Part shown: positions 3,065 to 64,000 of the stretch, piece by piece
How the letters are laid out: each line of letters starts with the position of its first letter
How positions within the stretch are numbered: position 1 is the first letter of the stretch
NCBI GenBank assembly: GCA_964016885.1
Contig: OZ024740.1
Span: 404,612,001 to 404,676,000, forward strand
Reading direction: 5' to 3'
DNA: 64,000 bases
Source of the DNA: Eledone cirrhosa
Lineage: Eukaryota
The notes under the pieces: model-generated
The model's input: only the letters and a program-made list of their open reading frames with translations
The model's database searches: none
What the model was told of the DNA's origin: nothing
Position numbers and translations under genes: made by a program

Positions 3065-5777
3065 TCATCATCATCAACGTTTAACGTCCATGTTCCACGC
3101 TTGCATGGGTTTGGACGGGGGTATTCCCACTTGAGGCAAGAGTGATTGTCTTGCTCGCATAGGACTGTCTGGCAGGTTTTCTACAGTTGGATGCCCTTCC
3201 TAACACCAACCACATTTACAGTGTGGGTCTGGGAGGTTTTTACCGTGTTGCCTACACGGCCACATTACAGCGTGGACTGTGTGTTTTTTTGTCGTGACAC
3301 CTACACGATCTCATTTGTTTCGGCCTGGATGGCGTGGCACCGACATAACTTTACATAGAAGGGGGTGGTGTGGATGGGGTGGGGGTGGTGGGACGGGTGT
3401 ATTTTGTTAGAGATGCCTACTGGCTGTAGTAGGTTTTACTATGTATTTAGGTAAGGCAGGTCTTCTCTGTTACTGAGTACCGCTAAAGGTCTCGGTCCAG
3501 TGACATTGTCTTGGAGAGGTGTAAGTGTATAAGGTCGGAATTTATCAGCTCGTCCCAGGTTTTTCTAGGTCTGCCTATTCCGTGGCTACCGTCTATCTTT
3601 ATTGCCCTGCACTTTGTTATACAGCTATCGACTTTCATGCGCATCACGTGTCCATACCAACGTAGCCTTCTCTCGAGTAAACGACATCTGATCCCTCTTA
3701 TTTCTAATTTTTTCCTTAGTTCGTTTATGCTTTGCCGTTCACGTATATTAGTTACACATCCAGCGGAGCATGCAAGCTTCGTTCCTCTCTAGTCTGCGTA
3801 TATCCTCTGCACACAATGCCCAGGTCTCACTGCCATGCAACATTGCTGTTCGTATGCAGGCATCATACAACCTGCCTTTCATTTTTAGGGAGAACCCTTT
3901 AGCAGCTAATAGTGGTATAAACTCTCTGAACTTTTTCCATCCAGTTCTGACTCTAGCTACTGTACTTTCTGAGCACCCTCCCCCACTGCTGATTTTGTCA
4001 CCCAGGTAACGGAAGCTGTCCACTATTTCTTTAGAGCCCTCTGCGCAATTGTAAGAGCTAGTATTTTGTGGGCACTTGCTGCTACTTATTGCACCAGAGC
4101 ACCGGCCACATGTAAAATCTATGTTCTTAGTTAGCTTACCTGTGATCCCACTACATCTTTTATGCACCCATACTTTGCATTTGGGACATAAAATGGAGTT
4201 TCTACCTACGCCTTTCCTACACACTGAGCATGGCCATTTCCCAGAAGGGACCGCCGCCTTATTTTCTTTCCTACAAACTAGAACTTTAGTCTTAGCCAGG
4301 TTAATTTTAAGTCCTTTTGATTCTAGGCCGTGCTTCCATGTTTGGAATTTCTTCTCTAGCTCGGCCATTGATTCAGCTATGAGTGTCAGGTCGTCTGCGT
4401 ATAGGAGTTCCCATGGGCAGCCGGTCTTGAACTCCTCTGTTATAGCCTGAAGGGCAATAATAAATAGTAGGGGGCTGAGAACAGAGCCCTGATGGACACC
4501 AACTTTTACGCTAAACTCTTCACTATGTTCGTTGTTAATTCTAACCTTGCTGACTGTTTCTTTATACAAGGCTTGTATCGCTCTCACAAGCCATTCGTCA
4601 ACACCTAGTTTTCTAAGAGCCCACCAGATAATGGAGCGGGGGACTCTGTCAAAGGCTTTCTCCAAGTCGACAAAAGCTAAGTAGAGGGGTTTACCTTTAG
4701 CTAGGTACTTCTCCTGTAGTTGTCGTACAATGAAAAGAGCGTCTGTGGTACTTTTGCCTGACACAAACCGAACTGCATTTCATCTAGGTCAATTCTCTCT
4801 CTGATTAGTTGCGCTATTACTTTTTCCGTGACCTTCATGACCTGGTCGATTAATTTAATGCCTCTATAGTTACTCCTATCTAGGGCATCTCCTTTACCCT
4901 TATAACAGTTAACGATGATGCTGCTATGCCAGTCCTTCGGAACAACCCCATTCTGTACGACTTGGTTAACTATGCGGGTGACCATGGTGTGTCCCACCGT
5001 GTCAGATGCCTTCAGCATCTCAACGACTATTTCCGAAGGCCCAGCCACCTTACCCATCTTCATATCCTTGATTGCCTTACTTATTATACTCCCCTCGACT
5101 AACACTGCTGGTCCCTCTATTGGGTCGATGTGGGGGAGACTGTCTTTCTCACATTTATTCTCCTCATTTAGTAGTCTTTCATAGTGACACTTCCAAGCTA
5201 CCTTCTTATCAGCGTCGGTGATGGCAAGTACGCCGTCATCATTAAGTACACACTTCTCCCCGACAATATCACGGTTTTCCTTGACACATTGCCTAGCAAT
5301 CCTGAACACCTCACGTTTTTGGTCCTCGCGTTGTAGAACATGCTTTCCTCTGCTTCCCTTCTTGCGAAGTACACTTGTCTCCTAGCTTCCCTCCTGGCCA
5401 CTTGATAGTCTTCTCTACTTCCCCCATCCCGCCATACTTTCCAAGCCTGCTTTTTGGCCTTAATTGACCCCTACACCTTACTGTTCCACCACCATGTTAC
5501 TCTCCTCCTGCCTACTGGCCTGCTCCAGCCACAGACTTCGTCTGTCACCATCAGCAGGTTTGCTTTCAGAAATTCCCACTGTCCCTCTATATTGTCCGAC
5601 TCTAAATGCTCTTCCTTACTGTCGAAAGCATCAAGTAATATGCTTTGAAATTTATTTCTGGCTGTGGGGTCCTTTAGCTTCCATATTTTTCTCCTGAGGA
5701 TAGTCCTCTTCTGCTGTCGAGTACGTCTCGTCCTGACTATGAGGTCGCTAATTATCAGTCTATGTTGGGAGGTGCAT
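3065..5777 (-). mobile_element. RTE-type LINE subfamily A, 5'-truncated, frameshifted (linker, RT with PHD insert, 3'UTR, (GAT)n tail)
   Basis: ORFs 4701-5309 and 3748-4764 contain NYRGIKL, FVDLEKAFDRV, GVHQGSVLSP, LLYADD, FRYLG and GSETW; the element ends GTTAAACGTTGATGATGAT. Confidence 0.95.
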
Positions 5778-6519
5778 ATATATATATATATATATAAACA
5801 AATACATACATACATAAACAAATACATACATACATAAACAAATACATACATACATAAACAAATACATACATATATATATGTATGCGGTCGTTTTATATTC
5901 TTGATAATTCTAATTTATTTCAATATTGCTAGGGACTTGGCTCCTTGAAACACATACACACAAACACAAAAGTGTAGCCAATCTAAGAACGCTAGTTAAA
6001 AATAACCATTACATACACACACATCTACACAAACATACACAGACTCAGAGAAAATAATTATTATATGCACACATATATGTGTGTGTGAGCATATGTATAC
6101 ATTTATGTGTATGAGTAACACAGGTTAATGAAGCAGATGAGTTACCTGTCTTTGCGTGACGTGCAAAAACACAAGAGCATTATAGCATTATATATTAGTA
6201 TATATATATATATATATATATACTTGCACCAAATATAAATAAACCTGTTACGAGGTACGAATCTCAGAATTTGTCAACTCTTATTAATGGTCAGTCCACT
6301 TCTACGAAATGTAATGTAAAAATACCATTTTCTTCTTGTCTCCCCACCCTTCGGTTCATTCATCCATATATCTGTATAATCGCCCAGAATCCAATCCTAC
6401 TTTCTCAATGCTATTCTATAATTCTGTCTGGCTGTTCTAAATAATCTTGTGTATTTTAAAATCCCAGTATATCGCTTGTTACTGTTTATTGCTTTATTTA
6501 AAACCTTCTCCTCGCTAAC

Positions 6520-7092
6520 TACCCCATATCCCTCCCGCCCGTCCCCACTCTCCACCATTATTATTTGGACCAATCATAAGTCAGCGGCCTATGCTATCAC
6601 TTCTCCTGTTTGCTTTTCGATATGATGGATGGACTAAGGAATTTCTGGAGAGTCTGAAGAATCTGGACACTCGGAGACAATGCCAAAGAAAACGACAAAT
6701 TCACCTCATGCTGCCGGACAAAAGGGCAAGGACTCCTCCTTTTTGTTTCGGCCGCGGATGGCCAACATAACCCCAACCCCATCCCCCGCGCCCCACCCAC
6801 CAAACGCAATCCAAAACTTCGGAGTTGGTACCATGAATGTAGGCACCACGAGGTTGTAGAAATGCTTGAACATAAGGAGGTTGATGTTTGCTGTATCCAA
6901 GAGACCAGGTGGAGGGGCAGGTCTGCTAGATTCATTGTGGGTAAAAAACGATGCTATAAGCTTTTCTGGGTGGGAAATGACAATGGGCTGGGTTGGGTAG
7001 GAATCATGTTAGCAGAAAAATGGGTGGATAAGATAATAGACGTAAATAGAGTGAATGACAGAATAATTGTGTGTCATATATATGTGTGTGTC

Positions 7093-7123
<31 letters not shown>

Positions 7124-8687
7124 TAAGACTTGTTCTAAATAGAACTACTGTGACAGTAATATCTGTGTACACACCCCAATCCGGACTGCCTGGCGCTATA
7201 AAAGACAGATTCTATGAGACACTGATGCTCACTACCTCCCAAATAACCGACAGTGACTATATAATTATTGCTGGCGACCTAAATGGTCACGTTGGACAAC
7301 ATTGTGACGGCTATGACGGAATCCATGGAGGCTATGGGTTTGGTACTAGAAATGAGGAAGGCTCCAGAATCCTGGAATTCTGTGACGCAAATAACCTAAC
7401 TATCTGTAACACTAACTTCAAAAAAATGAGACAATCACTTGATCACCTACAGATCAGGGGAACATACCAGCCAGGTAGATTATATCCTTACCAGAAGACG
7501 TGATAGATTGTCTGTTGTAAACACTAAATCCCTCCCCCATGAAGAATGCACCTCCCAACATAGACTGATAATTAGCGACCTAATAGTCAGGACGAGACGT
7601 ACTAGACAACAGAAGAGGACTATCCTCAGGAGAAAAATATGGAAGCTAAAGGACCCCACAGCCAGTAATAAATTTAAAAGCATATTACTTGATGCTTTCG
7701 ACAGTAAGGAAGAGCAATTAGAGTCGTACAATATAGAGGAACAGTGGGAATTCCTGAAAGCAAACCTCCTGATGGCGGCAGATGAAGTCTGTGGCTGGAG
7801 CAGGCCTATAGGCAGGAGGAGAGTAACGTGGTGGTGGAACAGTAAGGTGGAGGAGTCAATTAAGGCCAAAAAGCAGGTTTGGAAAGTATGGCGGGATGGG
7901 GGAAGTAGAGAAGACTATCAAGTGGCCAGGAGGGAAGCTAGGAGACAAGTGTACTTCGCAAGAAGGGAAGCAGAGGAAAGAAAGTTCAAGCATGTTCTAC
8001 AACGCAAGGACCAAAAACGTGAGGTGTTCAGGATTGCTAGGCAATGTGTCAAGGAAATGTCACTGGACCGAGATCTTTGGCGCTACACAGTAATACAGAA
8101 GACCCGCCTTACCTAAGAAAGACGACAGCTGTATAAAAAAGTGCAGGGCAATAAAAATAGACAGTAGCCACGGAGTAGGCAGACCTAGAAAAACCTGGGA
8201 CGACTTGATAAATTCCGACCTCACACACTTACACCTCTCCAAGACAATGTCACTGGACCGAGATCTTTGGCGCTACACAGTAATAGAGAAGACCCGCCTT
8301 ACCTAAATAGAAGGTAAAACCTACTACAGTCAGTAGGCACCTCTAACAAAAATACACCCCCGTCCCACTACCCCCACCCCATCCACACCACCTCTTTCAA
8401 TGTAAAGTTATGTTGGTACCACAACATCCAGTCCGAAACAAATGCGGTTGTGTAGGTGTCACGACAAAAAAACACACAGTCCACGCTGTAATGTGGCCGT
8501 GTAGGTTTCACGGTAAAAACCTCCCAGTCCACACGGTAAACGTGGTTGGTGTTAGGAAGGGCATCCAGCCGTAGAAAACCCGCCAGACAGTCCTATGCGA
8601 GCAAGACAACCACTCTTGCCTCAAGTGGGAAAACTCCCGTCCAAACCCATGCAAGCGTGGAAGATGGACGTTAAACGATGATGATGA
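6520..8687 (+). mobile_element. RTE-type LINE subfamily A with 5' region and AP endonuclease, RT deleted, rearranged 3' end
   Basis: APE motifs CIQETRW, AGDLNGHVG, QVDYIL, SQHRL; at about 8057 the sequence jumps to the ORF terminus; same 3'UTR and tail as the other copies; 5' boundary uncertain. Confidence 0.9.
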
Positions 8688-8899
8688 TATATATATATAT
8701 TTGTCTGTGTGTAAAGTGGTCGTGTTGGTGTCATGACAAATAGCAGCCAGTCCACATTGAAAAGTGCTTGTTTTGATGCCACAATAAAAAACCACCCACT
8801 CCACACTGTAAATGTAGAATGCTAGCATGGAGAAATGGGCATTAAACGGTGATGATAATGATATGTAAATAAGATTTTGCTTGAATAATGTAGCATTAC

Positions 8900-11990: not shown

Positions 11991-12508
11991 CTATTAAAAT
12001 GAAATAGTAAAATACAATATTTTCACACAATGTATTTATGGGAAAAGCAATGAACAAAATTTACCTCCCAAGAGCTATCTCTAATGTAATTTCAAATTGA
12101 TTGTCTGTTAATATTATGCGTCCATCATTTTAAATCTGTTTTCAATTTTGGCATGAGTCAGACAGATTATTATAGTCAAGTCAGTTCCAATTTAGAGTTA
12201 CTACTCTCCTAGACAGGTCAAAGGACCAGCATTACATTCTTAATTTCTAATATATATATATTATCTTCATTTAATGTCTGATTTTTTTTTCCATGCTGGT
12301 ATGGGTTAGACTGGTTGTCACAGACTAAGTCAGTACTTAAATGGAGTTACTGTCATCCCAGATGGGCTGAAGGCCCACATTTTATTTATGTTCTGGTTTT
12401 GGCGTGGTTGATCCACAGCTATGCACTGACACTGAATCATGAACTTCTTAACCACACAGCCATGAAAATTACAAAATCAACTAAAGCCATAAAGTAGAAT
12501 ATACTCAC

Positions 12509-12610
12509 TTCAATAAAATCAATGATATCTTGTGCACGGTGCTGGCCATGGTAAGGATGTGGTGTACTTCTATTGTAAAAAATAGTGGTTGGATAAGATC
12601 TAATATTGTA
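12509..12610 (-). CDS. DNAJC10: DNAJC10 coding exon 14
   Basis: YNIRSYPTTIFYNRSTPHPYHGQHRAQDIIDFIE; CAG acceptor and GTGAGT donor. Confidence 0.92.
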
Positions 12611-13727
12611 CTGAAATGACAGAAATCAGGAAAAAATACTATAATTTCATCAATTACGGAAATTAATAGAGGCTTTATGCTACAAATATTCTATAAATTT
12701 AGTCCTCACATTTGTTTAACTCTGCTTGGGTAGACCTATGACCAAAGGCATTTCAGCTTGACCATAGTCTTATTTTAGGATATAGTGTACCTATTATTTC
12801 TAGTTGCTTAAATGACCACACAAAGGCTCCCTTGTTTGCTTATCTGTTATTCTAATTAGACCTAAATTAGTTAAAATCTTCAATGCTTTCTGTGAAACTG
12901 TTTAACAAAACAATGTATATAGATAGCAGCCACTGATTAAAAAAGTATTGATTACTCCAATCTAATCCAATTCAACCAGTTTTAAAAGCACTCAGTCCAT
13001 CACTTTATGAGAGCTTTAATGAAAGCAACATTGTTGCACTTTACATCTATCTGACTACAGCAACCTCAGCAGCCTGAGAACACCTGACTAACTTACAAAA
13101 AAAGCCCTTTTGATACCAAATTGCCAGAAACTGCCCTTGGTTCTATAATTCTAAGCTGTTTATCGTAAAAAGTTTTTAGTAAGAATAAAAGAACCATCCA
13201 TCATATTTCTATGTAAGAACCCTTGTTAAATTATATTCCAAATACCAACTTAATAATGGTTTCTAATTTTGGCACCAAGCCAGCAATTTTGGAGAGAAAG
13301 CAAAGTCAATTAACCTTAGAAAGATGAAAAGCAACTTGGTGGGATTTGAACTCAGAATGTTAAGAACCAGGGTATATACTGTTAAGCATTTGTCCAATGC
13401 TCTAATGAATGCCAATCCACCATTAAAACACCAACTTAATATTGAGAAAGTTATATTAATAAATCTCTCCAAATTTTTTATTATTTTAAAAATGATTTGG
13501 TAATAACAGGCAGTGTCTATCATTAGAAATACGGTAATGAAAGAATAAAGAGAGAAGACATGTGAACTCAATATCTTCAAACTACTAACATGAGTCAAAA
13601 ACTCAATTGGAATTAGTGTTGCTTTTCTTGAACTTTATGGCAAAAACAAATAATAGTAAAAAAATATTTCTCTACACAGAAATTATATTGCTGTAATATA
13701 AGGATAAGCCACACTTTGTTACCTAGC

Positions 13728-13941
13728 TTAACCCTTTAGCATTTACATTACTCTATATATATATTATTATATTTTCATGGTAAAGGCTTTACCTCACATC
13801 ATTATTTCACATAATATCGAATCTATGAGATTTTGATATACATTTTGAGAACAATACCTTAACATAAGTATGAGCAGCTGGTTACATCTGGTTTGAACAG
13901 AAAGAGGTGAGAGAATTCTAACCAGATATGGCCGGTTTAAG
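13728..13941 (+). mobile_element. TTAA-flanked MITE family 1 (piggyBac-like ends), right end degraded
   Basis: Starts TTAACCCTTTAGCATTTA; body matches 23957-24183. Confidence 0.7.
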
Positions 13942-14304
13942 GTTTCTAAATAGAAAGAGATCCTAACTTCTTGTAATACTAATATATTTTAAGGCCATTT
14001 TCCCAACTAAAACAAAAGCTAATCTCAATGACATAGAGGTCCTTTTCGAGGCAAGATTTACAGCTAGATGCCTTACCTACTACCAACCCCTTTAGTACTA
14101 CATGCAGGAATATGGTGTACCTATTCTAAACAAAATACACACAGCTTATGCAACAAAATAATTTAATTCAAAACAATTATAAATCCAGTTTTGTATCGAA
14201 GCTACTTCAAAAACAAGAATCTCTAGTTTTTTTTATGTTTAATAGAAAATGTATGCAAATTTAAGAATTTATAAAAAACACCATTTGGAAAAAAACTATT
14301 ATAC

Positions 14305-14421
14305 CTGATTACAGAGGCTCTGATGCATAGTACAATCAACAGAACCAAAGGATATGGTTTTACCATAACTTTTGGATGCTTTTCTAAACTCTGGCAACAG
14401 TCGCATGCATGGTGGACACCA
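14305..14421 (-). CDS. DNAJC10: DNAJC10 coding exon 13 (Trx2 active site WCPPC)
   Basis: WCPPCMRLLPEFRKASKSYGKTISFGSVDCTMHQSLCNQ; TAG acceptor and GT donor; phase 0/0. Confidence 0.93.
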
Positions 14422-15461
14422 CTATAAAAGATAAAGGTTTGAATAATCAAATCAATAAAAAATAATATTTTTATACTTTACTGATTTTGATATTAACACA
14501 CTTGAGCATTCCCCGAGTTTCTAGCATACAACACCTGTTTTTAACTCTATAATGATTTTCCATGAGATGTCTAAAAACAAATTTATTAATTCAAATGCTT
14601 ATAGCATCTTTACTCGTGGACATTTCTTTGTGAAATTTTCCAGTATTAGGATAGATACTTTAATTTTTTATGTGAAGCAGTCAGTCCTGTTTTGTACTTT
14701 TCTTGAATGCCTAGCTAATGTAATTTCATTTGGTATTGAATGTTAAGAGTTAAATTAAAACTTTCTACCACAATTTAATGTAAGAAGCCTTTAAGTTATT
14801 AAAAAAGTTAGTTATTTTACTAAATTCCCCCAAATTCTTGATTATTTTAATACTTTGAACCAGCTGAGCCATTATTCCAGCACTAACAATGTTTGACTAT
14901 ATACTGCCAGCCTGGTATTTCATTCTGCCACACTATTTACTACAACTATTTACACTGCTTTCTGATCAAATAAGCAATTGCTTTAACCTCAGTTCACTGT
15001 TTTTAACCTGAGTTCTTTGGTAAGTTCATACATTTATGATCTTTTGTTCAGGTTTAACAAATAGGTACAATTTATTTTTTTTTGGGGGGGGGGGGATTTT
15101 CATGCAGATGCCTAGCATGTCAGAGTTCAATGAGTTAAGAAAATTTTAATCATAGGCAATATGGTCACAAAAAAGTTAAACATCAATTAAAAAAAATATC
15201 TGTTTGTAGTATTGATGATGGGAATATCTCTTCAGTATTACTTGTATCATCTTGATGTATTCTTTGTTGATTTTGGCAATGAGTATTCAGTCATCCAATC
15301 AACTGGATAGTCAACTTATGAATTAAAGTGTAAAGTGATTGAGTATTCTATAGACGTGCATTCTTAATGTAATTCCCAAACTGGATCAATGTAACACAAC
15401 GTATGTGACAAGGTTGGATCTTTGAATTACCAGTACACTTCATCTGACAGGTTCCCATACA

Positions 15462-15610
15462 TTATTCATCTACCCAATTTCACCCATGAGCCTTGGGTAG
15501 ACCTGAGGCTATGGTAAATAACACTTGTTCAAGTTGCCATACAGTGGGATCAAACCTGGGACCTCATGATTATGAAGCAAACTTCTTAATCATTCAGCCA
15601 TGCCTGTGCC
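15462..15610 (-). mobile_element. Degraded tRNA/CORE-type SINE family 3 (similar copies near 19160-19285, 39110-39200, 40970-41030)
   Basis: Minus strand reads GGCACAGGCATGGCTGAATGATTAAGAAG...GGTTTGATCCCACTG...TTGAACAAGTG: degenerate A and B boxes plus a CORE-like motif. Confidence 0.6.
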
Positions 15611-15699
15611 CACTGTATCATTTTAAATCGTAATCTGATAACATATATACCATAGTTCATTTTAAAAGGTAAATCAGGAATATATACAAATATACTTAC

Positions 15700-15836
15700 T
15701 GGTGCAAAAAAATCAACAAACCAAGGATCTTGACTATCTACTACACGTTGAGGAAAATCTTGAGGGCCAAGTGTTTCCAATGAAGCTTTCATACCCTCTT
15801 TAGCAAAAGCTGCAACATCATGAGCAGTTGTACGAC
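15700..15836 (-). CDS. DNAJC10: DNAJC10 coding exon 12
   Basis: (G)RTTAHDVAAFAKEGMKASLETLGPQDFPQRVVDSQDPWFVDFFAP; CAG acceptor and GTAAGT donor; phase 1/0. Confidence 0.93.
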
Positions 15837-16145
15837 CTGCAATTTTGAAAGTAACAAACTATGAGTTACAGCTTTTTATAAAAATCTAGGAATACTACAT
15901 TGAGTACAAAAACAATAACAAGCATTTTGGGGTCATATTCCTCACTGAAGTAGGGGTTAGCTTTGCATGCCCCCTGACAAGAGGGCTTTTTTGAGGTTTT
16001 ACAGTCGGATACCCTTCCTGGTGCTAACCCATTCAGTCACCTCATACAACATGCAGGGATACAGTGAACAAAAGCAATACTTAGTGTGTAAGAGACAAAA
16101 AAATACACAAAACTGCTGAAATTAAGATTTCTATGAATAATTTTA

Positions 16146-16300
16146 GGTGGTTAATTGGCAAAATCATTAGAGCATTGGATAAAATATTTTACAATATTCA
16201 TTGCAGCTCTCTGCATGCTGAGTTCAAAACCCATTGAGGTCAACTTTGCCTTTCATCCTTTCAAGGTTGATAAAAAAGTACCAGTCCAGTACTGGGTCAA
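16146..16300 (+). mobile_element. SINE family 1, diverged copy
   Basis: TGGCAAAATCATTAG...GAGTTCAAAACCC...CTTTGCCTTTCATCCTTTCAAGGTTGATAAAAAAGTACCAG. Confidence 0.7.
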
Positions 16301-16302
16301 TT

Positions 16303-16341
<39 letters not shown>

Positions 16342-16861
16342 TTTCTCTCTATTACTCTCTCGCCTTCTCTTGAAAAAATCAGCTGTGTTCAAACCTGGAG
16401 AAGAAACAAGTTCTACCAAGGTAAAAATGTCCAAGACATGCTATATATTACTATGGCTATTCTACAATTCCATCAAAAATTATGGATGTCAAACATTGAT
16501 AACTTTATTTCAGTTTTTGTTTCATTGAAGTTCCATTATGAGAAACTGATAGCTTTAAGATGTAATTAAGTTTCTGGTATAGAAGCTCAGGAGTCATGAA
16601 TTCATATCCTTCAGCACCCTTTCAATGTAGAAGAAATTAAATGACTGACTAGATATGATACTGAATAGATTACTGGTATAGATACATAATGAATATAGAG
16701 GATAATTGTTGGATGAAGAAGTGCCAGGAGTTTCAAGTCAAAGATGTGGTAGAGGAAGGCTGACAAATACTTGTACAGAGGTAGTGAGGGTAGATCTGAA
16801 AATGATGATCCTCACAATGGATATGACAAAGGAAAGAGACAAGTAGAAGCAAAGGACAAAC

Positions 16862-16908
<47 letters not shown>

Positions 16909-17354
16909 AATGAAGCTTCTCTAGTCATACAGAGAATGTGTGACTAAACAATAAGGAACCATTAATACTTAAAAGAGACTCAGCAGATCTTTTGGGAAAG
17001 TTCCCAACAATAGCCTGTCCCATGGAAGATATGTATTTCAAGAAACACACCAACACACAGAGATTCATCAGAGTTATAATCATCATCATCATCATCATTT
17101 TACATGTTTTCCCCATGTTTGCATGGGTTGATGGGGTCTTTACCAGCATAGCATGCCTCCACTCATTGTGTTCCTTCGTCATCTCTTCTGTGAGGATCAG
17201 TGTTTTGAGATCAGCTCTCACCACTTCTGCTCAGGTCTTCCTTGGTCTTAAGAATAGCAGCCCTGAAATATGTTGCCTTATAAAAAAAAATAACTTCTGT
17301 TTTAGCATTCATATTAAAACAACATAAAATTTATTTTTTAAATTATTTCCTTAC

Positions 17355-17466
17355 CATAATAGATTTCATGGCCACCACTTAATTTGAAGAGGACAAAAAC
17401 AGGCATTTTAAAAATATGCAAGTTTTGACATTCACTCTGAAGAACCCTGCAATCAACACGACCAAC
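17355..17466 (-). CDS. DNAJC10: DNAJC10 coding exon 11 (redox-inactive Trx-like domain)
   Basis: VGRVDCRVLQSECQNLHIFKMPVFVLFKLSGGHEIYY(G); TAG acceptor and GTAAGG donor; phase 0/1. Confidence 0.9.
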
Positions 17467-17719
17467 CTACAAAATAGGAAAAGCAGATAGTTCATAGTTT
17501 CTACTCAACAGATATTTTTTTAAGTTCATGTAGAATTTTAACATTGTTATTGCTGTTTAGCCCAACTTGATGAAGATGATTTTTCATATGTCCTCAGAGT
17601 AATGTTTTATAAGGCATTTAGATTGTTGGGAAGTGATCTAACAAGGAGTGATTTATTGATGCTTTCTATAGGTTTGTAGTGAAATTTGAAAGAAAAATAT
17701 GAGTAAATTAATAACTTAC

Positions 17720-17836
17720 ACGAATGTCTTCATCTTCCAGAAGACTTGGGATCTTTCTCAATTCCAAATTAACTTCATCTCTATCAAAGAAATGAACAAT
17801 CCAAGCTGTACTATCTTCATTTTGCTGTCCGATATC
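17720..17836 (-). CDS. DNAJC10: DNAJC10 coding exon 10
   Basis: DIGQQNEDSTAWIVHFFDRDEVNLELRKIPSLLEDEDIR; CAG acceptor and GTAAGT donor. Confidence 0.88.
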
Positions 17837-17999
17837 CTGGTAAGACAAAATGAAAAAGATTGTTAACATGAAGAAATAAATATATCTTCAAAGAATCCCA
17901 CATCATGTTTGTTCAATCAACTGAATGTCCAAATAATTAAATCAATATGTAAGAGGTTGAGTATTTCACATATATTATGCCAATGATTTCGATATGAAG

Positions 18000-19056
18000 A
18001 TACCTAAAGATCTGTGTTGTGCTTGGCTCCACCCTTACACAGCCCTTCCACCAAGCTCTCAACTTCTCCAAGCTGATACAACGGTTTGCCTCAAATTTAC
18101 TGGTAGTCTGCTGGATGATGCAGCGCCAAGCATTGTGGTCAGCAGTCTAGGTGGTCTATTGGTGGGGGTTGATGTTACATATTTTCATCATTTTTTTTAC
18201 CATGTGTTTGTACTGCTTCTTGGGTACACTGCTGTTTTGACAATACATTCTTTGGCAGATGGTGGTCTGCCATTCTGGAAGCATGCCCCACCTAGCACAG
18301 CTGTGTTTTCAGAAGAGTAGCTTCAATACTGGTGGTCTTGACTTTCTTGAAGACTCCTGTGTTGGTGACATAGTCACTCTAGTTGATGTTTAATATAGTG
18401 TGCAGACAGCATTGGTGGAATATCTCCAGGAGGCAGGTATGACAGTGATTCAAGACCCACAACTCAGAGCTGTATAAGAAAATGGTAAGGATTACAGCTC
18501 TGTAAACGTTGAGTTCTGTCTATTTTGAAATTATTATTTCTCCACATCATTGGTGATTTGGATGGGCTGGGACAGGTTATTTCCGAGTTTAACTTGACCA
18601 AATTATCCATTGTAGAGTTTGGATGAATGGCGACCCCTCATTCCAATTTAGACTCCATGAATTCTTCATCAGTTGTTGGAAGCATGGCACACTTCCACCA
18701 GACCTCTGTAATGCAAGCATCATCATAGATTGCTCCAATTACAGAGGCATCACCCTGCTTTCCATTGCAGGAAAGATCCTGGCCCGAATTCTGTTCAACA
18801 GGCAAACATCTCCATTGCTGAGGACCATCTCTCCGAGAGCCAGTGAGGTTTTAGAGCAAACTGAGGCACTATGGACATGATATTTGTCTTGAGATAGCTC
18901 CAGGAGAAATGTCAAACAAAACAAAGGTTTGTTCATCATCTTGGTTGACTTAACCAGTGTTCAACATTGTGTGCAGGAAGGGTCTATGGCAAATTCTTGA
19001 GAAGCTGGGCTGCCTACCAAAATTCTTCACCATGATCACCCAGCTCCATGATGGGC
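18000..19056. mobile_element. Old RTE LINE fragments of a different family (plus-strand RT piece 18620-19056; probable minus-strand C-terminal piece 18000-18560)
   Basis: DCSNYRGITLLSIAGKILARILFNR and GLWQILEKLGCLPKF...LHDG; multiple stops. Confidence 0.7.
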
Positions 19057-19662
19057 ATTTCACATGTACTCTTAACATAATTCCCAGGACAAATCAGCAT
19101 GACACAATATATAAGGCTGGACCTTTGAATTACAGGTAAAGACCATCTGACAAGCTCTCACACAGTTTCCATCTAGCCAATCTCATCCACAAGACATGGG
19201 TTGACTTAAGGCTAAGATGATATGCAGTGGGATTGAACCTAAGACCTCATGATTGCAAAACCACCTTAATTACTCAGCCATACTTGCATTCAATAAGAAA
19301 TATATGTCTGAACACAGCTGATTTCTTCCAAAAAAGAGAGAGAGAGAGAGGAATATAGAAGGAGAATCAACATCATTACTGGACTGGTATTTTTTTTATT
19401 GATCTCAAAAGAACGAAAATCGGAGTTGAACTTGGCAGGATTTGAACACAGAACACAGAGCACAGAAAACAGGAATGAACACTGCAAAGCATTCTATCCG
19501 ATGTTCTAACAACTCTGTCAATCTGCCACCTCTTTAATAAGAAATAAATGATTAAAATCATCAACTGACTGAGAAAACCAAGCAGTAATACTATCTATGC
19601 TTTCATTTACAAAATAGACACGAAAAAACTTGGTAATAGAAAAATTAAGTTTAAAGTCTTAC

Positions 19663-19752
19663 CTCAAATTGTTTTTCATCCAGAAGAGTGACATCAGGTA
19701 GTTGTAGTAAAACTTGTTGTGCAATCTCTTGAGCTACAAGACTTGGAATGAT
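19663..19752 (-). CDS. DNAJC10: DNAJC10 coding exon 9
   Basis: IIPSLVAQEIAQQVLLQLPDVTLLDEKQFE; CAG acceptor and GTAAGA donor; phase 0/0. Confidence 0.88.
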
Positions 19753-19792
19753 CTGTAGACATGTTAGAAAAAAATGATTGTCAATGATTGTC

Positions 19793-20720
19793 AAACTCTG
19801 AGAGGGCTCTGTAGAAACAGTAGACAGCTTCTGCTACCTAGGTGACCGAATTAGCAGCGGAGGTGGGTGTTCGGAAAGTACAATAACTAGGGTAAGAACG
19901 GGATGGAAGAAATTCAGGGAGCTACTGCCACTGCTAGCTGCAAAAGGCTTTTCCCTCAAAATGAAAGGCAGACTGTATGATGCGTGTATACGAAGAGCAA
20001 TGTTACATGGTAGTGAAACCTGGGTGTCGTGTGTAGAAGACTTGCGTAGATTAGAAAGAAACGAAGCCTGCAAGCTCTGATGGATGTGTAATAGTAATAT
20101 ACATGAACGGCAAAGCATAAATGAATTGAGAGAGAGACTGAGCATAAGAGGAATCAAATGTTGTGTGCAGGAGAGGTGGTTACGTTGGTATGGACATGTG
20201 ATGCGTATGAAGGATGACAGCTGCATAAAACGGTGCAGAGCACTAGAAGTCGATAGAAACCGCGGAGTGGGGAGACCCAAGAAGACCTGGCATAAGGTGA
20301 TAAAAGCTGATCTTTCCCAATTACACTCTCAAAAGCAATGAATGACACACGACCGTGACCTCTGGCGTCACGCAGTAATACAGAAGACCCGACCCTCCCA
20401 TGAGTACAAGCCGAAGCTGAAGCATATAGACAATATGCCCCCACACCCTCCCACTGCAAAGTGGTCGTGAAGGTGCCACGGCAAAAAAGCGCCCAGCCCA
20501 CACTGTAAAGTGAACGTGTAGGCGCTACGGAAAAAAAGCACCCAACACTCACTGTAAATGAGGTTGGTGTTAGAAACGGCATCCAGCTGTAGAAATCAAA
20601 CCAGATTCAGTTCCCCTATGAGCAAGACAAGGTCAGCCGACTGGACACTGCCCACAACAGGACAACCCGTCTAACCCATGCTAGCGTGGAAGAATGGACG
20701 TAAAACAGTGATGATGATGA
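19793..20720 (+). mobile_element. RTE-type LINE subfamily B, 3' fragment
   Basis: ETVDSFCYLGDRISSGGG...GSETW...LRWYGHVMRM...GRPKKTW; near-identical to 50461-51396; tail AAACAGTGATGATGAT. Confidence 0.92.
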
Positions 20721-24629: not shown

Positions 24630-25978
24630 GGAGTTCAAGACCGGCTGCCCATGGGAACTCCTATACGCAGATGATCTAACGCTCATAGCTGAATCAATGG
24701 TCGAGCTAGAGAAGAAATTCCAAACATGGAAGCACGGCCTAGAATCAAAAGGCCTTAAAATTAACCTGGCTAAGACTAAAGTTCTAGTTTGTAAGAAAGA
24801 AAATAAGGCAGCGGTCCCCTCCGGGAAGTGGCCATGCGCAGAGTGTAGGAAAGGCGTAGGTAGAAATTCCATTTTGTGTCCCAAATGCAAAGTTTGGGTG
24901 CATAAAAGATGTAGTGGGATCACAGGTAAGCTAAGAACATAGATTTTACATGTGGCTGGTGTTCTGGGGCAATAAGTAGCAGCAAGTGCCCACAAAATAC
25001 TAGCTCTTTCAACTGCGCAGAGGGTTCTATAGAAATAGTGGACAGCTTCCGTTACCTGGGTGACAAAATCAGCAGTGGGGGAGGGTGCTCTGAAAGTACA
25101 GTAGCTAGAGTCAGAACTGGGTGGAAAAAGTTCAGAGAGCTTATACCACTATTAGCCGCTAAAGGGTTCTCCCTAAAAATGAAAGGCAGGTTGTACGATG
25201 CCTGCATACGAACAGCAATGTTACATGGCAGTGAGACCTGGGCATTGTGTGCAGAGGATATACGCAGACTAGAGAGAAACGAAGCTTGCATGCTACGCTG
25301 GATGTGTAATAGTAATATACGTGAACGACAAAGCATAAACGAACTAAGGAAAAAATTAGAAATAAGAGGGATCAGATGTTGTTTACTAGAGAGAAGGCTA
25401 CGTTGGTATGGTCACGTGATGCGCATGAAGGACGATAGCTGTATAACAAAGTGCAGGGCAATAAAGATAGACGGTAGCCACGGAATAGGCAGACCCAGAA
25501 AAACCTGGGACGAATTGATAAACTCCGACCTCACACCTCACCAAGACAATGTCACTGGACCTTTGGCGGTACTCAGTAATAGAGAAGACCCGCCTTACCT
25601 AAATACAAAGTAAAACCTACTACAGTCAGTAGGCATCTCTAACAAAATACACCCCCGTCCCACCACCACCACTCCCTTCTATGTAAAGTTATGTTGGTGC
25701 CACACCATCCAGGCCGAAACAAATGAGATCGTGTAGGTGTCACGACAAAAAAACACACAGTCCACGCTGTAATGTGGCCGTGTAGGCAACACGGTAAAAA
25801 CCTCCCAGACCCACACTGTAAATGTGGTTGGTGTTAGGAAGGGCATCCAACTGTAGAAAACCTGCCAGACAGTCCTATGCGAGCAAGACAATCACTCTTG
25901 CCTCAAGTGGGAAAACCCCCGTCCAAACCCATGCAAGCGTGGAACACGGACGTTAAACGATGATGATGATGATGATGA
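24630..25978 (+). mobile_element. RTE-type LINE subfamily A, 5'-truncated
   Basis: ORFs 24628-24942 (LLYADD, PHD) and 25038-25613; 3'UTR and (GAT)n tail. Confidence 0.95.
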
Positions 25979-27990: not shown

Positions 27991-28364
27991 CTGAAACAAA
28001 ACATATTGGTTTTACATTTTTGATCAACTTAAAGTTCATTATAATCACAAAGTGATAGCGTTGGTGTCATGATAAAATTTCATTTACAAGGTACCATATA
28101 TTTTGAATTGAGGTTTTTTAGGTCTAATAGATAAGTCACATGCTGATTTTCATATAATATTTTCATGGAAAAAGTGCAACTTATACACAAGTATATTACA
28201 GTAAGAATAAATATATTAAAACAAAACAAATATATCAATTATTAATTTAAAGTGTTTAAAGTATATCAATTTTAAGATTGTTCAAGTAGTGAACTTATCA
28301 GATTGAGAAATGCCTATACTTATATTTATAAGTTAATTCAAACTAATTTCAGAGAGCTACTTAC

Positions 28365-28450
28365 CACAGGTGCCAAGTGGTGACAATGAGAGCAATGAGG
28401 TGAGTAATAATTGATGAACCAAATATCTTCAGTGCCCTCAACAGATTGTT
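28365..28450 (-). CDS. DNAJC10: DNAJC10 coding exon 4 (Trx1 active site CSHC)
   Basis: (E)QSVEGTEDIWFINYYSPHCSHCHHLAPV; CAG acceptor and GTAAGT donor; phase 1/0. Confidence 0.94.
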
Positions 28451-29450
28451 CTGAAATAAAATTGAAAATAATTTCAGATTTCAAAAATGTTTAAATAAAA
28501 CAAAAAAAACCATGCCTCTTTCCCTCAACACACAATACTGACAAAATGTGTCAAAAAAGAGAAATCACTTTACCAGCTAGAAAGACCAACCAAATCTCCC
28601 TCAAATAACACCCTAATGAAAAAATAATAAAAACATTAATATAGGACTAAGTATCCCTAAAAAGACAGGATAGTCAGGGATAGAATGCCTTTGACCAGAA
28701 GTCTGCTTGATCAGAATTGACGTGGGGCTAAGCATCAACATAATTTACCCACAGTACATACATAATTTGGTAATTTAAGTTAGCTATTACACTTTGAATA
28801 TTCATGAATATGTTTGTATTCTTTGACACCCATGCTAGCATGGAAGATAGACGTTAAAGGATGATGATGAGGATGATGAGGATGGGGATGAGGATGAGGA
28901 TGATGATGACAGAAAAAGTATTTTACATCTAATTCTCCATACATCTCTTCATTTTTTCCTGAAATTGTAGACTCAGTCGCATTTAAATATAATTACCATA
29001 CTTATCTCTTCTTCCCCAAATCTTCTTATCATATCTTACTTCTGATTTGACACTAAATAATTTGCCCAATCCTTCATAAGACAATATATCATATCTGACA
29101 CTATAGTGCTCTTCCCTTTTTTTGTTTTTATTGATAACAAAGATGAGTTAATTTCTAAATCTATAACTTTGATTCTTTTATAAATTTAGATATCAAACTT
29201 ATTTGTTTTAGTGAACATATTTTCAGTGTTTTCATTTACTCACTACAACAGATCTTAGAATGACATAATCAATCAGGGAAAAGCAGACGTATGATGATGA
29301 TGATGATGATGAAGAAGAAGATAGAGTATAATGTTGAATATTAAGATTAAAGTACTTTTTTCCTAAAAAGTTCTTAAATTAAGTGACAATTTTTTGGTGA
29401 CTTTATTAATACTGTCAATATTTGCTTTATGCTAATTAAAATCATCATGT

Positions 29451-29693
29451 TTAACCCTTTTGATACAAAGCCACCAAAAACTGGTCTCGGTTTTATGATA
29501 TAAAACTGTTTGTTTTAAAGTGTTTATATTTACCTAAAAACTTTCCATTATAATTTTAAGTAAGAACCTTTAATAAGCTATACTCCAAACACCAGCTTAA
29601 TAATGAGAAATTATAAATTTTTGATTATTTTCTAAATTATTTCAAAATCATAAGCAGTGTCTTTCATTAGAAATATGGTAATGAAAGTGTTAA
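29451..29693 (+). mobile_element. TTAA-flanked MITE family 2 (relatives near 13105-13545, interrupted by a SINE, and 32550-32760)
   Basis: TTAACCCTTTTGATACA ... TGGTAATGAAAGTGTTAA imperfect TIRs; shared motif CATTAGAAATATGGTAATGAAAG. Confidence 0.65.
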
Positions 29694-29733
29694 ATTTAAA
29701 ACATTTAATAAGAGTGTTTCAAAATATCTTTAT

Positions 29734-32969: not shown

Positions 32970-34101
32970 TCATCATCATCATCATCAACGTTTAACGTCC
33001 GTGTTCCACGCTTGCATGGGTTTGGACGGGGGTAGTCCCACTTGAGGCAAGAGTGATTGTCTTGCTCGCATAGGACTGTCTGGCAGGTTTTCTACAGTTG
33101 GATGCCCTTCCTAACACCAACCACATTTACAGTGTGGGTCTGGGAGGTTTTTACCGTGTTGCCTACACGGCCACATTACAGCGTGGACTGTGTGTTTTTT
33201 TTGTCGTGACACCTACACGATCTCATTTGTTTCGACCTGGATGGTGTGGCACCAACATAACTTTACATAGAACGGGGTGGTGTGGATGGGGTGGTGGTGG
33301 TGGGACAGGGGGGGGGGGGTATTTTTGTTAGAGATACCTACTGGCTGTAGTAGGTTTTACTATGTATTTAGGTAAGGCGGGTCTTCTCTGTTACTGAGTA
33401 CCGCCAAAGGTCTCGGTCCAGTGACATTGTCTTGGAGAGGTGTAAGTGTGTGAGGTCGGAGTTTATCAGCTCGTCCCAGGTTTTTCTAGGTCTGCCTATT
33501 CCGTGGCTACCGTCTATCTTTATTGCCCTGCACTTTGTTATACAGCTATCGACTTTCATGTGCATCACGTGTCCATACCAACGTAGCCTTCTCTCGAGTA
33601 AACGACATCTGATCCCTCTTATTTCTAATTTTTTCCTTAGTTCGTTTATGCTTTGCCGTTCACGTATATTACTGTTACACATCCAGCGGAGCATGCAAGC
33701 TTCGTTCCTCTCTAGTCTGCGTATATCCTCTGCACACAATGCCCAGGTCTCACTGCCATGCAACATTGCTGTCGTATGCAGGCATCGTACAACCTGCCTT
33801 TCATTTTTAGGGAGAACCCTTTAGCAGCTAATAGTGGTATAAGCTCTCTGAACTTTTTCCAACCAGTTCTGACTCTAGCTACTGTACTTTCAGAGCACCC
33901 TCCCCCACTGCTGATTTTATCACCCAGGTAACGGAAACTGTCCACTATTTCTATAGAACCCTCTGCGCAATTGAAAGAGCTAGTATTTTGTGGGCACTTG
34001 CTGCTACTTATTGCACCAGAGCACCGGCCACATGTAAAATCTATGTTCTTAGTTAGCTTACCTGTGATCCCATTACATCTTTTATGCACCCATACTTTGC
34101 A
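32970..34101 (-). mobile_element. RTE-type LINE subfamily A, 5'-truncated
   Basis: ORFs 33712-34089 and 33368-33766; near-identical to 3065-4180. Confidence 0.95.
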
Positions 34102-39447: not shown

Positions 39448-40668
39448 GTTTGTAGGAAAGAAAATAAGGCGCCGGTCCCTTCCGGGAAATGGCCATGCTC
39501 AGTGTGTAGGAAAGGCGTAGGTAGAAACTCCATTTTATGTCCCAAATGCAAAATATGGGTGCATAAAAGATGTAGTGGGATCACAGGTAAGCTAACTAAG
39601 AACATAGATTTTACATGTGGCCGGTGCTCTGGTGCAATAAGTAGCAGCAAGTGCCCACAAAATACTAGCTCTTTCAATTGCGCAGAGGGTTCTATAGAAA
39701 TAGTGGACAGCTTCAGTTACCTGGGTGATAAAATCAGCAGTGGGGGAGGGTGCTCTGAAAGTACAGTAGCTAGAGTCAGAACTGGGTGGAAAAAGTTCAG
39801 AGAGCTTATACCACTATTAGCCGCTAAAGGGTTCTCCCTAAAAATGAAAGGCAGGTTGTACGATGCCTGCATACGAACAGCAATGTTGCATGGCAGTGAG
39901 ACCTGGGCATTGTGTGCAGAGGATATACACAGACTAGAGAGAAACGAAGCTTGCATGCTCCGCTGGATGTGTAATAGTAATATACGCGAACGGCAAAGCA
40001 TAAACGAACTAAGGGAAAAATTAGAAATAAGAGGGATCAGATGTTGTTTACTCGAGAGAAGGCTACGTTGGTATGGTCACGTGATGCGCATGAAAGACGA
40101 CAGCTGTATAAAAAAGTGCAGAGCAATAAAGATAGACGGTAGCCACGGAGTAGGCAGACCCAGAAAAACCTGGGACGACCTGATAAATTCCGACCTCACA
40201 CACTTACACCTCTCCAAGACAATGTCACTGGACCGAGATCTTCGGCGGTACTCAGTAATAGAGAAGACCCGCCTTACCTAAATACATAGTAAAACCTACT
40301 ACAGTCAGTAGGCATCTCTAACAAAATACACACCCGTCCCACCACCCCCGTCCCATCCACACCGCCCCTTTCAATGTAAAGTTATGTCGGTGCCACAACA
40401 TCCAGGCCGAAACAAATGAGATCGTGTAGGTGTCACGACAAAAAAACACACAGTCCACGCTGTAATGTGGCCGTGTAGGCAACAAGGTAAAAACCTCCCA
40501 GTCCCACACTGTAAATGTGGTTGGTGTTAGGAAGGGCATCCAGCTGTAGAAAACCCGCCAGACAGTCCTATGCGAGCAAGACAACCACTCTTGCCTCAAG
40601 TGGGAAAACTCCCGTCCAAACCCATGCAAGCGTGGAATATGGACGTTAAACGATGATGATGATGATGA
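39448..40668 (+). mobile_element. RTE-type LINE subfamily A, 5'-truncated, reading frame still open
   Basis: ORF 39433-40281 runs from the PHD finger to the natural stop (KTRLT*); 3'UTR and tail present. Confidence 0.95.
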
Positions 40669-49429: not shown

Positions 49430-51396
49430 GAAGCATGTTTTGCAACGTGAGGACCAGAAACAGGAGGTGTTCAAGATTGCAAGGCAGTGTGTCAGAGAGA
49501 ATTGTGATGTCATTGGAGAGAAGTGTATCCGGAATGATAAAGGTGAGCTTCCCCTCACAAGTGCTGAGAAGAAAGATGTGTGGAAGAGCCATTATGATAG
49601 ATTACTAAATGAGGAGAATGCATGGGAAGAAGAGACCCTACCCCAAGTAGACCCTATAGAGGAGCCAGCAGTACAAATCAGCAGCAGCGTAGTAAGTAAG
49701 GCAATCAAAGATATGAAGACTGGGAAAGCAACCAGTCCATCGGGTATAGCTGCCGAGATGCTGAAGGCATCTGGGTCGGTAGGTCACACCATAACCACAC
49801 GAATTGTTAACCAGGTAATACTAGGTGTCATACCAAAGGATTGGTGCAGTAGCATCATTGTCAACTGCTACAAAGGTAAAGGTGATGCACTAGATAGAAG
49901 AAACTATAGAGGTATAAAGCTGATGGACCAGGTCATGAAAGTAGCAGAAAGAGTTATAGCACAGTTGATTAGGGACTGGGTGAAACTAGACAAGATACAA
50001 TTTGGGTTTGTACCAGAAAGAGGCACCACTGATGTCCTCTTCCTTGTGATGCAGTTACAGGAAAAGTAGCTAGTTAAAAGTAAGCCGCTCTACCTGGCAT
50101 TCGTCGATCTCGAGAAAGCCTTTGACAGAGTTCCCCGTGCTATAATCTGGTGGTCTCTTAGAAAACCAGGAGTAGATGAAATTCCAAACTTGGAGAAGAA
50201 ATGAGAAGAAATTCCAAACTTGGAAGCAGGGACTAGAGAGAAAGGGTCTCAGGGTCAACCTGACAAAGACTAAGGTCCTTGTAAGTAGATGAGAAAACAG
50301 AACCCAGATCCCCTCAGGGAAATGGCCTTGCTCAGTATGTAGGAAAGGTGTAGGTAGGAACTCCATTCTCTGCCTCAAATGCAAACAATGGGTACCCGAG
50401 ATGTAGCGGGATCTCAAGAAGCTTAACTAAGAATGTAGGCTTCAGGAAGCAAGTACCACCAAACTCTGGGAGGGCTCTGTAGAAACAGTAGACAGCTTCT
50501 GCTACCTAGGTGACCGAATTAGCAGCGGAGGTGGGCGTTCGGAAAGTACAATAACTAGGGTAAGAACGGGATGGAAGAAGTTCAGGGAGCTACTGCCACT
50601 GCTAGCTGCAAAAGGCTTTTCCCTCAAAATGAAAGGCAGACTGTATGATGCGTGTATACGAACAGCAATGTTAGATGGTAGTGAAACCTGGGTGCTGTCT
50701 TTGGAAGACTTGCGTAGATTAGAAAGAAACAAAGCCTGCATGCTCCGATGGATGTGTAATAGTAATATATGCGAACGGCAAAGCATAAATGAATTGAGAG
50801 AGACACTGAGCATAAAAGGAATCAAATGCTGTGTGCAGGAGAGGCGGTTGCGTTGGTATGGACATGTGATGCGTATGAAGGATGACAGTTGGATAAAAAG
50901 GTGCAGAGCACTAGAAGTCGATGGAAACCGTGGAGTGGGGAGACCCAAGAAGACCTGGGATGAGGTGATAAAAGCCGACCTTACCCAATTACACCTCTCA
51001 AAGGCGAAGGCACACGACCGTGACCTCTGGCGTCACGCAGTAATACAGAAGACCCGAACCCCCACGGGTACAAGCCAAAGCTGAAGCATATAGACAATAT
51101 GCCCCCACACCCTCCCACCACAAAGTGGTCATGGAGGTGCCATGGCAAAAAAGCACCCAGCCCACACTGTAAGGTGGGCGTGTAGGCGCCACGAAAAAAA
51201 AGCACCCAGCACTCACTGTAAATGAGGTTGGTGTTAGGAAGGGCATCCAGCTGTAGAAATGAGGCCAGAATGAGTTCCCGTATGAGCAAGGCATGGTCAG
51301 CCGATTGGACACTGCCAACAACAGGACAACCCATCTAACCCATGCTAGCGTGAAAGGACGGACGTAAAACAGTGATGATGATGATGATGATGATGA
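49430..51396 (+). mobile_element. RTE-type LINE subfamily B, 5'-truncated with internal deletions
   Basis: ORFs 49353-50069 and 50629-51084; FVDLEKAFDRV present; the QG-YADD segment is deleted near 50180; partial PHD; (GAT)n tail. Confidence 0.93.
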
Positions 51397-54348: not shown

Positions 54349-55483
54349 ATCATCATCATCATCATCGTTTAACGTCCATCGTCCACGCTTGCATGGGTTT
54401 GGACGGGAGTTTTCCCACTTGAAGCAAGATTGGTTGTCCTGCTCGTATAGGACTGTCTGGCGGGTTTTCTACGGCTGGATGCCCTTCCTAACACCAACCA
54501 CGTTTACAGTGTGGACTGGGAGGTTTTACCATGTTACCTACACGGCCACATTACAGCGTGGACTGTGTGTTTTTTTGTCGTAACACCAACACGACCTCAT
54601 TTGTTTCGGACTGGATGTTGTGGTACCAACATAACTTTACATTTAAGGGGGTGGTGTGGATGGGGTGGGGGTAGTGGGACGGGGTGTATTTTGTTAGAGG
54701 TGCCTACTGACTGTAGGTTTCGCTTTGTACTAAGGCAAGGCGGGTCTTCTGTATAACTGTGTAGCGCCAAAGATCTTGGTCCAGTGACATTGTCTTGGAG
54801 AGGTGTAAGTGTGTGAGGTCGGAATTTATCAAGTCGTCCCAGCTTTTTCTGGGTCTGCCTATTCCGTGGCTACCGTCTATTTTTATTGCCCTGCACTTTT
54901 TTATACAGCTGTCGTCTTTCATGCGCATCATGTGACCGTACCAACGTAGTCTTCTCTCGAGTAAACAACATCTGATCCCTCTTATTCCTAATTTCTCCCC
55001 TTAGTTCGTTTATGCTTTGCCGTTCACGTATATTACACATCCAGCAGAGCATGCAAGCTTTGTTTCTCTCCAGTCTGCGTATATCCTCTGCACACAATGC
55101 CCAGGTCTCACTGCCATGTAACATTGCTGTTTATATGCAGGCATCATACAGCCTGCCTTTCATTGTTAGAGAGAACCCTTTAGCGGCCAATAGTGGTATA
55201 AGCTCTCTGAACTTTTTCCATCCCGTTCTGACTCTAGCTACTGTACTTTCAGAGCACCCTCCCCCACTGCTGATTTTGTCACCCAGGTAACGGAAGGTGT
55301 CCACTATTTCTATAGAACCATCCATGCAATGGAATGAGCTAGTATTCTGTGCGCACTTGCTGCTACTTATTGCACCAGAGCACCGGCCACATATAAAATC
55401 TATATTCTTAGTTAGCTTACCTGTGATCCCACTACATCTTTTATGCACCCATACTTTGCATTTGGGACATAAAATGGAGTTTC
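54349..55483 (-). mobile_element. RTE-type LINE subfamily A, 5'-truncated
   Basis: ORFs 55131-55448, 54870-55124 and 54704-54931; 3'UTR and tail. Confidence 0.94.
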
Positions 55484-55657
55484 TTCATATATAAATTGTA
55501 ATTTCATTCTGTGGAATTATAATGTAAAACAAAACAGCATACAACTTATCTACTGGACATATGAAACCTCAATTCAAAATATAAAGTACACTGTAAATGT
55601 TATAAGTAAAATGGAAGTGTGGCTTATCAACTAATGTGACTTATATACCAATATATA

Positions 55658-63617: not shown

Positions 63618-64000
63618 TAGATATATATATTACTGTTACATTATGCAATAAAACTAAAGTGAATATAACAGCATGTGTGTGATTTAAATGACTATCATGG
63701 CTTTTCCACAATGTAATTATATAGAGTATATATCCTGTTTATAATAGTTTTATAGTTTTCCAGGCCATAGCAGAGGAGTTTAAGACTGGCTGTCCGTGGG
63801 AACTTCTAGTTCCCATAGCTAAATCTGTCAAAGAATTAGAAAAGAAATCCCAAACTTAAAATCTAAACCTGTAATTAAAAGGTCTTAAAGTAAACCTACC
63901 AAAGAGAAATGGTTTAGTTAAACAGGAATCATCTGTCATCTGAGAAGTGACCATGCTTAATATGCAGAAAATATGCAGGCAGGAATTCCATATGAGGTAC

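Follow-up and report, generated by a model that had tools for sequence, protein, structure and literature searches.

Does a folded PHD finger sit inside the reverse transcriptase (RT) of a LINE, and, if so, what would it do there? The question is raised by a 64,000-nucleotide stretch of Eledone cirrhosa contig OZ024740.1 (hereafter the window), for which a first-pass annotation had described a C4HC3 PHD finger embedded in the RT of an RTE-type element. The open minus-strand frame 3748–4779 reads YADD...GLKINLAKTKVLV-linker-CSVC-x10-CPKC-x4-H-x2-C-x14-CGRC-linker-EIVDSFRYLG. The finger is complete and in frame between RT motifs 6 and 7, with ligand C1 beginning at 4230 and ligand C8 finishing at 4099, and the translation has both the ligand spacing and the Trp two residues before the His that had been claimed. 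The HMM search that had been suggested recovered both domains in this frame: RVT_1 covers residues 3–168 and ends just ahead of the finger, and PHD (PF00628) covers residues 184–227, scoring 29.1 bits within the complete frame and 34 bits when the finger is taken alone (cut-off 24). The interval between motifs 6 and 7 exceeds that of a finger-less RTE by about 64 aa. The host copy, approximately 95% identical to an intact copy and with (TA)n at both ends, comprises part of the linker, RT, PHD, thumb, 3' UTR and a GAT-repeat tail, and is dead by a 5' truncation at ~5777, a frameshift at ~4701–4779 and a stop at 3748–3750.

Coordinates of the RT-embedded finger, the copy that carries it and further fingers in the window
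Feature	Position	Strand	Description and basis
PHD finger core	4099..4230	-	C4HC3, 44 aa, net charge +9; pattern, Pfam, fold
RT motif 5 (YADD) to motif 6 (GLKINLAKTKVLV)	4276..4401	-	Frame translation, Pfam, relatives
RT motif 6-to-7 interval (finger and two variable linkers)	4030..4275	-	YADD-to-YLG distance
RT motif 7 (EIVDSFRYLG), then thumb	4000..4029	-	Frame, relatives, full-length model
Host copy, broken and 5'-truncated subfamily A RTE LINE	3067..5777	-	
Intact PHD, second subfamily A copy (39448-40663)	39496..39627	+	Pfam, pattern
PHD with frameshift after ligand 6, subfamily A copy (24630-25970)	24835..24964	+	
PHD remnant, ligands 4-8, truncated 5' end of subfamily A copy	34021..34101	-	
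PHD remnant, ligands 3-8, truncated 5' end of subfamily A copy	55380..55484	-	
PHD first half (ligands 1-4, Trp), decayed subfamily B copy, remainder deleted	50329..50394	+	
PHD start (ligands 1-2), older more diverged copy	63921..63992	+	Absent from the first-pass annotation

Structure prediction, also proposed at the outset, returned a PHD fold closest to that of the Pygopus (Pygo) PHD. Modelled alone, the finger has a core pLDDT of 79–89; its top Foldseek rows are nearly all PHD domains (E 0.05–0.5, none below 0.001), and the best VIA match is Pygo 3zpv (Z 5.2, rmsd 2.1, 49 aligned); the scores are modest, as can be expected of so small a domain. The Pygopus PHD ranks first in both sequence and fold searches with the finger, Pfam PHD_Pygo (PF27108) matches relatives, and in the Atlas the finger of a relative neighbours clusters with PHD and PHD_Pygo. 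The full-length protein model (mean pLDDT 91, finger 87–93) shows an intact RT around the finger; its structural matches include R2 and L1 ORF2p, to the latter of which it aligns only up to residue ~1060. By these models, the finger has a true PHD fold. C1, RING and double-zinc-ribbon identities were rejected on profile scores below cut-off and on fold searches that returned PHD.

LINEs of the RTE clade have a single ORF with an APE endonuclease and an RT. The present family is an RTE-clade LINE by its single APE-RT ORF, the absence of RNase H and CCHC domains and its short-repeat 3' tail. Three of the 12 long copies (L013, L014, L015) have open frames of 1110–1111 aa; Pfam finds endonuclease (Exo_endo_phos), RT (RVT_1) and PHD in L014 and no match there to RNase H or a C-terminal CCHC domain. 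ORF1 was looked for in the intact copies and not found. The 3' tail is of the GAT type, with 3–10 units, in 48 of 52 copies. A first look at the 3.0 Gb genome gave 73,291 candidates for the family, of which 150 were scored, all 97–100% identical, and subfamily A makes up 8,728 of 320,040 bases (2.7%) in a random sample of 40 evenly spaced windows. The 3' UTR of young copies carries a tandem duplication of ~120 bp (window 3162–3283; 3' UTR of L014), and related repeats of 47–48 bp lie at 41683–41889 and 58519–58790. In one further copy, L016, two different 5' ends follow each other in tandem within an open frame of 1236 aa, apparently because one copy landed in frame inside another.

The finger had been taken for a fixed family trait, retained in several copies of the window. 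This stands for the intact finger of the second subfamily A copy and, in part, for the remnants starting at 34021 and 55380; the copy at 24835 retains the motif, but is frameshifted within the finger and has CGWC in its C8 region. The subfamily B copy at 50329, which had also been counted as retaining the finger, has only ligands 1–4; because the His and the second half were lost by deletions, that copy alone is no evidence of conservation. Ligand conservation across subfamilies was instead borne out by nine other subfamily B copies of the genome, which keep the first six ligands in all nine cases, C7 in seven and C8 in eight. A further family copy on the plus strand (6494–8688) has endonuclease and 3' end, and a large internal deletion took its RT and finger.

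The proposed dN/dS comparison between the subfamilies (nine A versus nine B copies) gave 0.10 for the finger, 0.045–0.057 for three RT blocks, 0.12 for the C-terminus and 0.37 for the C-terminal linker, all rough values, as pairs are not independent and dS is 1.2–2.1. On mean counts, p was 0.001 for finger versus linkers and 0.37 for finger versus RT. Between the two subfamilies, then, purifying selection has acted on the finger.

A protein search of a 50%-clustered set gave 3,154 matches, 150 of them listed. The stretch from YADD to YLG is spanned by 55 of the listed relatives, and each ligand is kept in 51–55 of these 55. Sampling was made independent of the finger by using RT residues 500–750 only as the query (120 matches listed, 110 scorable, 10 unscorable). 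Among the matches listed in this RT-only sample, 109 of the 110 scorable relatives carry the finger, 102 with the full pattern and seven with a variant or partial finger judged by eye, which together with purifying selection upholds the reading as a fixed trait. The sole finger-less relative among these 110 is catfish element P0452, with 69 aa from YADD to YLG versus 130–137 aa in most relatives. In alignment A1, the rows of which came from searches that included the finger, the eight ligands are invariant (134 of 134 rows). The best named match is an Octopus bimaculoides protein (63%). Named hosts are few, i.e., O. bimaculoides, the catfish Neoarius graeffei, a bivalve symbiont sample bin and a nematode record; the last two may represent host or contaminant DNA.

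The guess that similar inserts occur in other invertebrate RTEs proved right: BfRTE-a02 of Branchiostoma floridae (amphioxus) and NvRTE-a01 of Nematostella vectensis have, by eye, the finger at the same place in the sequences of supplementary file 2 of PMC2887409. Parts 1–2 of the three parts of this file likewise bear out that ordinary RTE RTs have no finger, which is absent from 17 of their 19 elements with a motif 5–7 stretch; the short interval of P0452 agrees. A quick tree, built on the part of the RT that precedes the insert, comprised 45 finger-bearing rows (thinned from 82) and five finger-less rows, few because a third outgroup search gave almost only one catfish genus. One change suffices for finger presence or absence in this tree (SH-aLRT 91), and the family is sister to a catfish finger-less element, in a tree built without named reference rows or a non-RTE outgroup; the likeness of the family to BfRTE-a02 and NvRTE-a01 was judged by eye. 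A single origin of the finger is possible on these sequences. Their distribution points to an old and wide lineage, from cnidarians to fish, and to no octopus novelty. The Neoarius element P0180 is, by eye, unusually close to Nematostella NvRTE-a01, a resemblance that would be consistent with horizontal transfer.

The architecture of LINE ORF2 proteins is generally considered rigid, and the choice of target is mostly credited to the endonuclease. In passages of PMC4120745, ORF2 structure is called highly constrained. The journal papers covered, mostly open-access ones, contain no description of a PHD in an RTE RT. BfRTE-a02 and NvRTE-a01 share with the present family the single APE-RT ORF and the same finger at the same place, and their sequences are published, with the finger unremarked in the main text, in which the words PHD, zinc and cysteine have zero occurrences (PMC2887409). 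A finger at RT motifs 6–7 is thus apparently undescribed for the RTE clade.

The idea itself has precedent at another position, in the RT of Chlamys Penelope-like elements. As excerpts of PMC8557442 describe them, these too have a PHD inserted inside a retroelement RT, but belong to another element class, comprise five Chlamydomonas families and carry the insert at RT2a–RT3 or within the endonuclease; the Chlamys insertion is an independent event. In another family, according to the same excerpts, motif 7 and thumb are separated by a SAP domain. The PHDs of CR1/L2 ORF1s are likewise LINE-borne, with best structural matches that include Pygo (2vpb, 3zpv), but lie in ORF1 or before the endonuclease and, in the passages of PMC4120745 that treat them, never inside the RT. 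They would be a plausible donor pool for the RTE finger. Closer by host are RTE-2_OV and an active O. bimaculoides RTE, single-ORF octopus elements of ~1100 aa (PMC9115989). RTE-2_OV differs, compared by description only, in a terminal C2H2 finger, and passages of PMC9115989 with eight supplementary files mention no PHD finger. That supplement gives the O. bimaculoides element the label RTE8BF, which hints at the amphioxus-like lineage.

The surface of the finger was compared across 219 non-redundant fingers (<80% alike) out of 346. All 219 cores are net positive (mean +6.2), with Lys or Arg at His+1 in 186, His+2 in 195, C1-3 in 175 and C2+2 in 151. The H3 site of Pygo consists of a cage (Y341, V350, A356, W366) and a T3-pocket residue (I357), on a binding face that is negatively charged, and an E360 mutant lost H3K4me3 binding (excerpts of PMC2726290). 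At the equivalent positions the family fingers have Y/W/F in 182, V in 199, S/A in 213, W in 213 and I in 189 cases, and 179 of the 219 keep all four cage positions (aromatic or His, Val, Ser/Ala, Trp) by sequence position. The resemblance to the Pygopus PHD thus extends over the [YFW]PC start and the cage Val, Ser/Ala, Ile and Trp. The family finger differs in a loop 1 of 10 aa versus 12 in Pygo, in having no known BCL9-type partner, in being net basic where Pygo is acidic and in having no D352 and E360 equivalents: an acid occupies the E360 site in eight and the D352 site in six of the 219, i.e., >96% of relatives lack the acids on which H3 binding by Pygo depends. A GVGxNSI loop and an SG[IV]xGxL stretch are almost invariant in the family. 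A predicted complex of the finger with zinc and the unmodified H3 tail of this genome scored 0.05, evidence neither way.

Of the chromatin- or nucleic-acid-reading module suggested initially, the nucleic-acid option is favoured over H3 reading because the Pygo acids are missing and the finger is strongly basic. We tentatively propose, at a probability of about 0.45, that during target-primed reverse transcription the finger grips DNA next to the nick, either target or nucleosomal DNA. The motif 6–7 loop would face target DNA in the RTE enzyme as it does in R2, and the conserved Lys and Arg residues (after the His, after ligands 2 and 6 and before ligand 1) would contact the backbone. Such a grip could lengthen the stay on chromatin of a single-ORF protein that has no other recognised DNA-binding finger. 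The kept hydrophobic cage might add a second, weaker contact to methylated lysine, the least certain part of the proposal.

The positional argument comes from R2, where an insertion between motifs 6 and 7, '6a', reads an upstream target motif and a deletion of six residues in it blocks nicking (passages of PMC10499050); in vertebrate R2, 6a wedges into upstream target DNA (passages of PMC12180492). Both insertions lie between the same RT motifs, but 6a is a short loop, called R2-specific in the same passages of PMC10499050, in a site-specific RLE element, whereas the family insert is a 44-aa domain, predicted to hold two zincs, in an APE element with dispersed copies. On the family profile, matches of R2 stop at 384–392, short of the finger at 401–454; 6a and the finger would be related by positional analogy only, with no homology. 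Among basic fingers, the BAZ1A PHD, also without the Pygo acids, binds DNA and nucleosomes, and a cross-brace finger of piggyBac binds DNA (excerpts of PMC5636791 and PMC5861402). Loop position, charge, the loss of the Pygo acids, these precedents and selection would by analogy favour a DNA grip. Against it stands the cage, which backbone binding leaves unexplained and which the BAZ1A PHD lacks. A basic pair alone gave no DNA binding to other PHDs in the excerpts that treat BAZ1A, finger-less RTEs retrotranspose without a finger, and the basic surface would suit RNA equally well.

Insertion sites were examined in 52 copies, with a young finger-less RTE family of the same genome (L135–L154, GTCTGA-repeat tail, visible short duplications) as control. 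Of the scorable copies, 28 of 49 have a (TA)4 run no more than 20 bases from the 5' end and 19 of 48 have one equally near the 3' end, compared to 12% of flank positions, 4.8% in random windows and 0/9 and 2/19 in the control. Non-simple target-site duplications were clear in one of 36 copies, and because clear duplications are rare, some 5' ends may be secondary and not original junctions. Distal flanks (2.5–10.5 kb beyond loci) have a median CpG o/e of 0.44 (n = 20; ≥0.5 in eight of the 20 windows) versus 0.75 in the control (n = 20, p = 0.009) and 0.60 in random windows (n = 40, p = 0.059), and near flanks one of 0.53 (n = 51 of 52 copies; p = 0.39 versus 0.60 random). CpG decay within copies is alike in the finger family (ratio 3.0–3.1) and the control (2.6). 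TA density was rejected as the cause of the CpG lean, the correlation being positive and not significant. The microsatellite bias is firm and the CpG-poor lean weak; neither is attributable to the finger, because the control differs in endonuclease and tail too. In molluscs, CpG-poor DNA points to methylated gene bodies. Two parts of the window, 12001–20000 and 28001–32000, are very CpG-poor (o/e 0.17–0.23), as expected in a methylated gene body.

The main competitor to a DNA grip is reading of methylated histone lysine by the finger (H3K4me2/3 or another, e.g., a gene-body mark), which would bias insertion towards such chromatin, possibly in addition to binding DNA. Its nearest structures are methyl-lysine readers with Pygo first, PHD_Pygo matches relatives, the cage and T3-pocket residues are mostly kept among the 219 fingers, and the distal flanks are CpG-poorer than those of the finger-less family. 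The acids that would hold H3 R2, A1 and K4 are nearly absent, however, and a basic tail would be repelled; the cage residues may only serve the fold; compared with random DNA, the CpG lean is weak both distally and nearby; and CpG-poor DNA suggests methylated gene bodies, not H3K4me3 promoters. We regard this reading as rather unlikely. Rated lower, and unlikely outright, is a combined form in which an RT-embedded chromatin reader would bind nucleosomal DNA and methylated histone lysine together, from the loop by which R2 recognises its target, and steer the element to CpG-poor gene bodies.

Binding to the RNA of the element itself (template or 3' UTR), by which the finger would take over part of the RNA handling done by ORF1 in two-ORF LINEs, is improbable. 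A single ORF, the ORF1 not found in intact copies and a basic surface would suit such a role, the PHF6 PHD is cited as a dsDNA or RNA binder, and the PHDs of CR1/L2 ORF1s also match Pygo structures (passages of PMC4120745), but the motif 6–7 loop faces target DNA in R2, and finger-less RTEs, also without ORF1, work nonetheless. Binding of a host protein is conceivable, given that PHD folds also bind non-histone partners (solved complexes among the fold matches) and that the GVGxNSI loop and SG[IV]xGxL stretch could form an interface, but the partner would need conservation from cnidarians to fish. The finger might instead merely stabilise the palm–thumb junction, against which the variable linkers on both sides suggest a mobile module; a protein-binding or stabilising role is, taken together, quite improbable. 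That sister RTEs manage without the finger would fit a tolerated passenger or a chance Cys/His pattern with no function. This reading has next to no probability and is already refuted by the selection data (dN/dS 0.10), besides the presence of the finger in nearly all RT-selected scorable relatives among the matches listed and the invariance of its ligands in A1, the rows of which were chosen with the finger in the search.

That elements from cnidarians to fish have kept a folded domain in the RT palm, where R2 has its DNA-reading loop, suggests that this loop is a reusable targeting site. If the combined chromatin-reading form holds, RT loop 6a would be a natural slot for targeting modules, and the finger would be to non-LTR elements what the chromodomain is to chromodomain-guided integrases. 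The question of whether a finger embedded in the RT influences where LINEs land bears on retrotransposon-based gene insertion, and the existence of intact copies makes this question directly testable.

Other features of the window include a satellite at 1–2234 (46-bp period, 48.5 copies, 96% matches), the unit of which contains a (CAT)n run resembling the tail of the LINE, and broken gypsy-like LTR-type pol fragments at 56684–58086 with Pfam RT and RNase H matches. Two 124-bp tandem pairs at 61455–61700 and 62495–62740, inverted and ~800 bases apart, are possibly the ends of a small DNA transposon.
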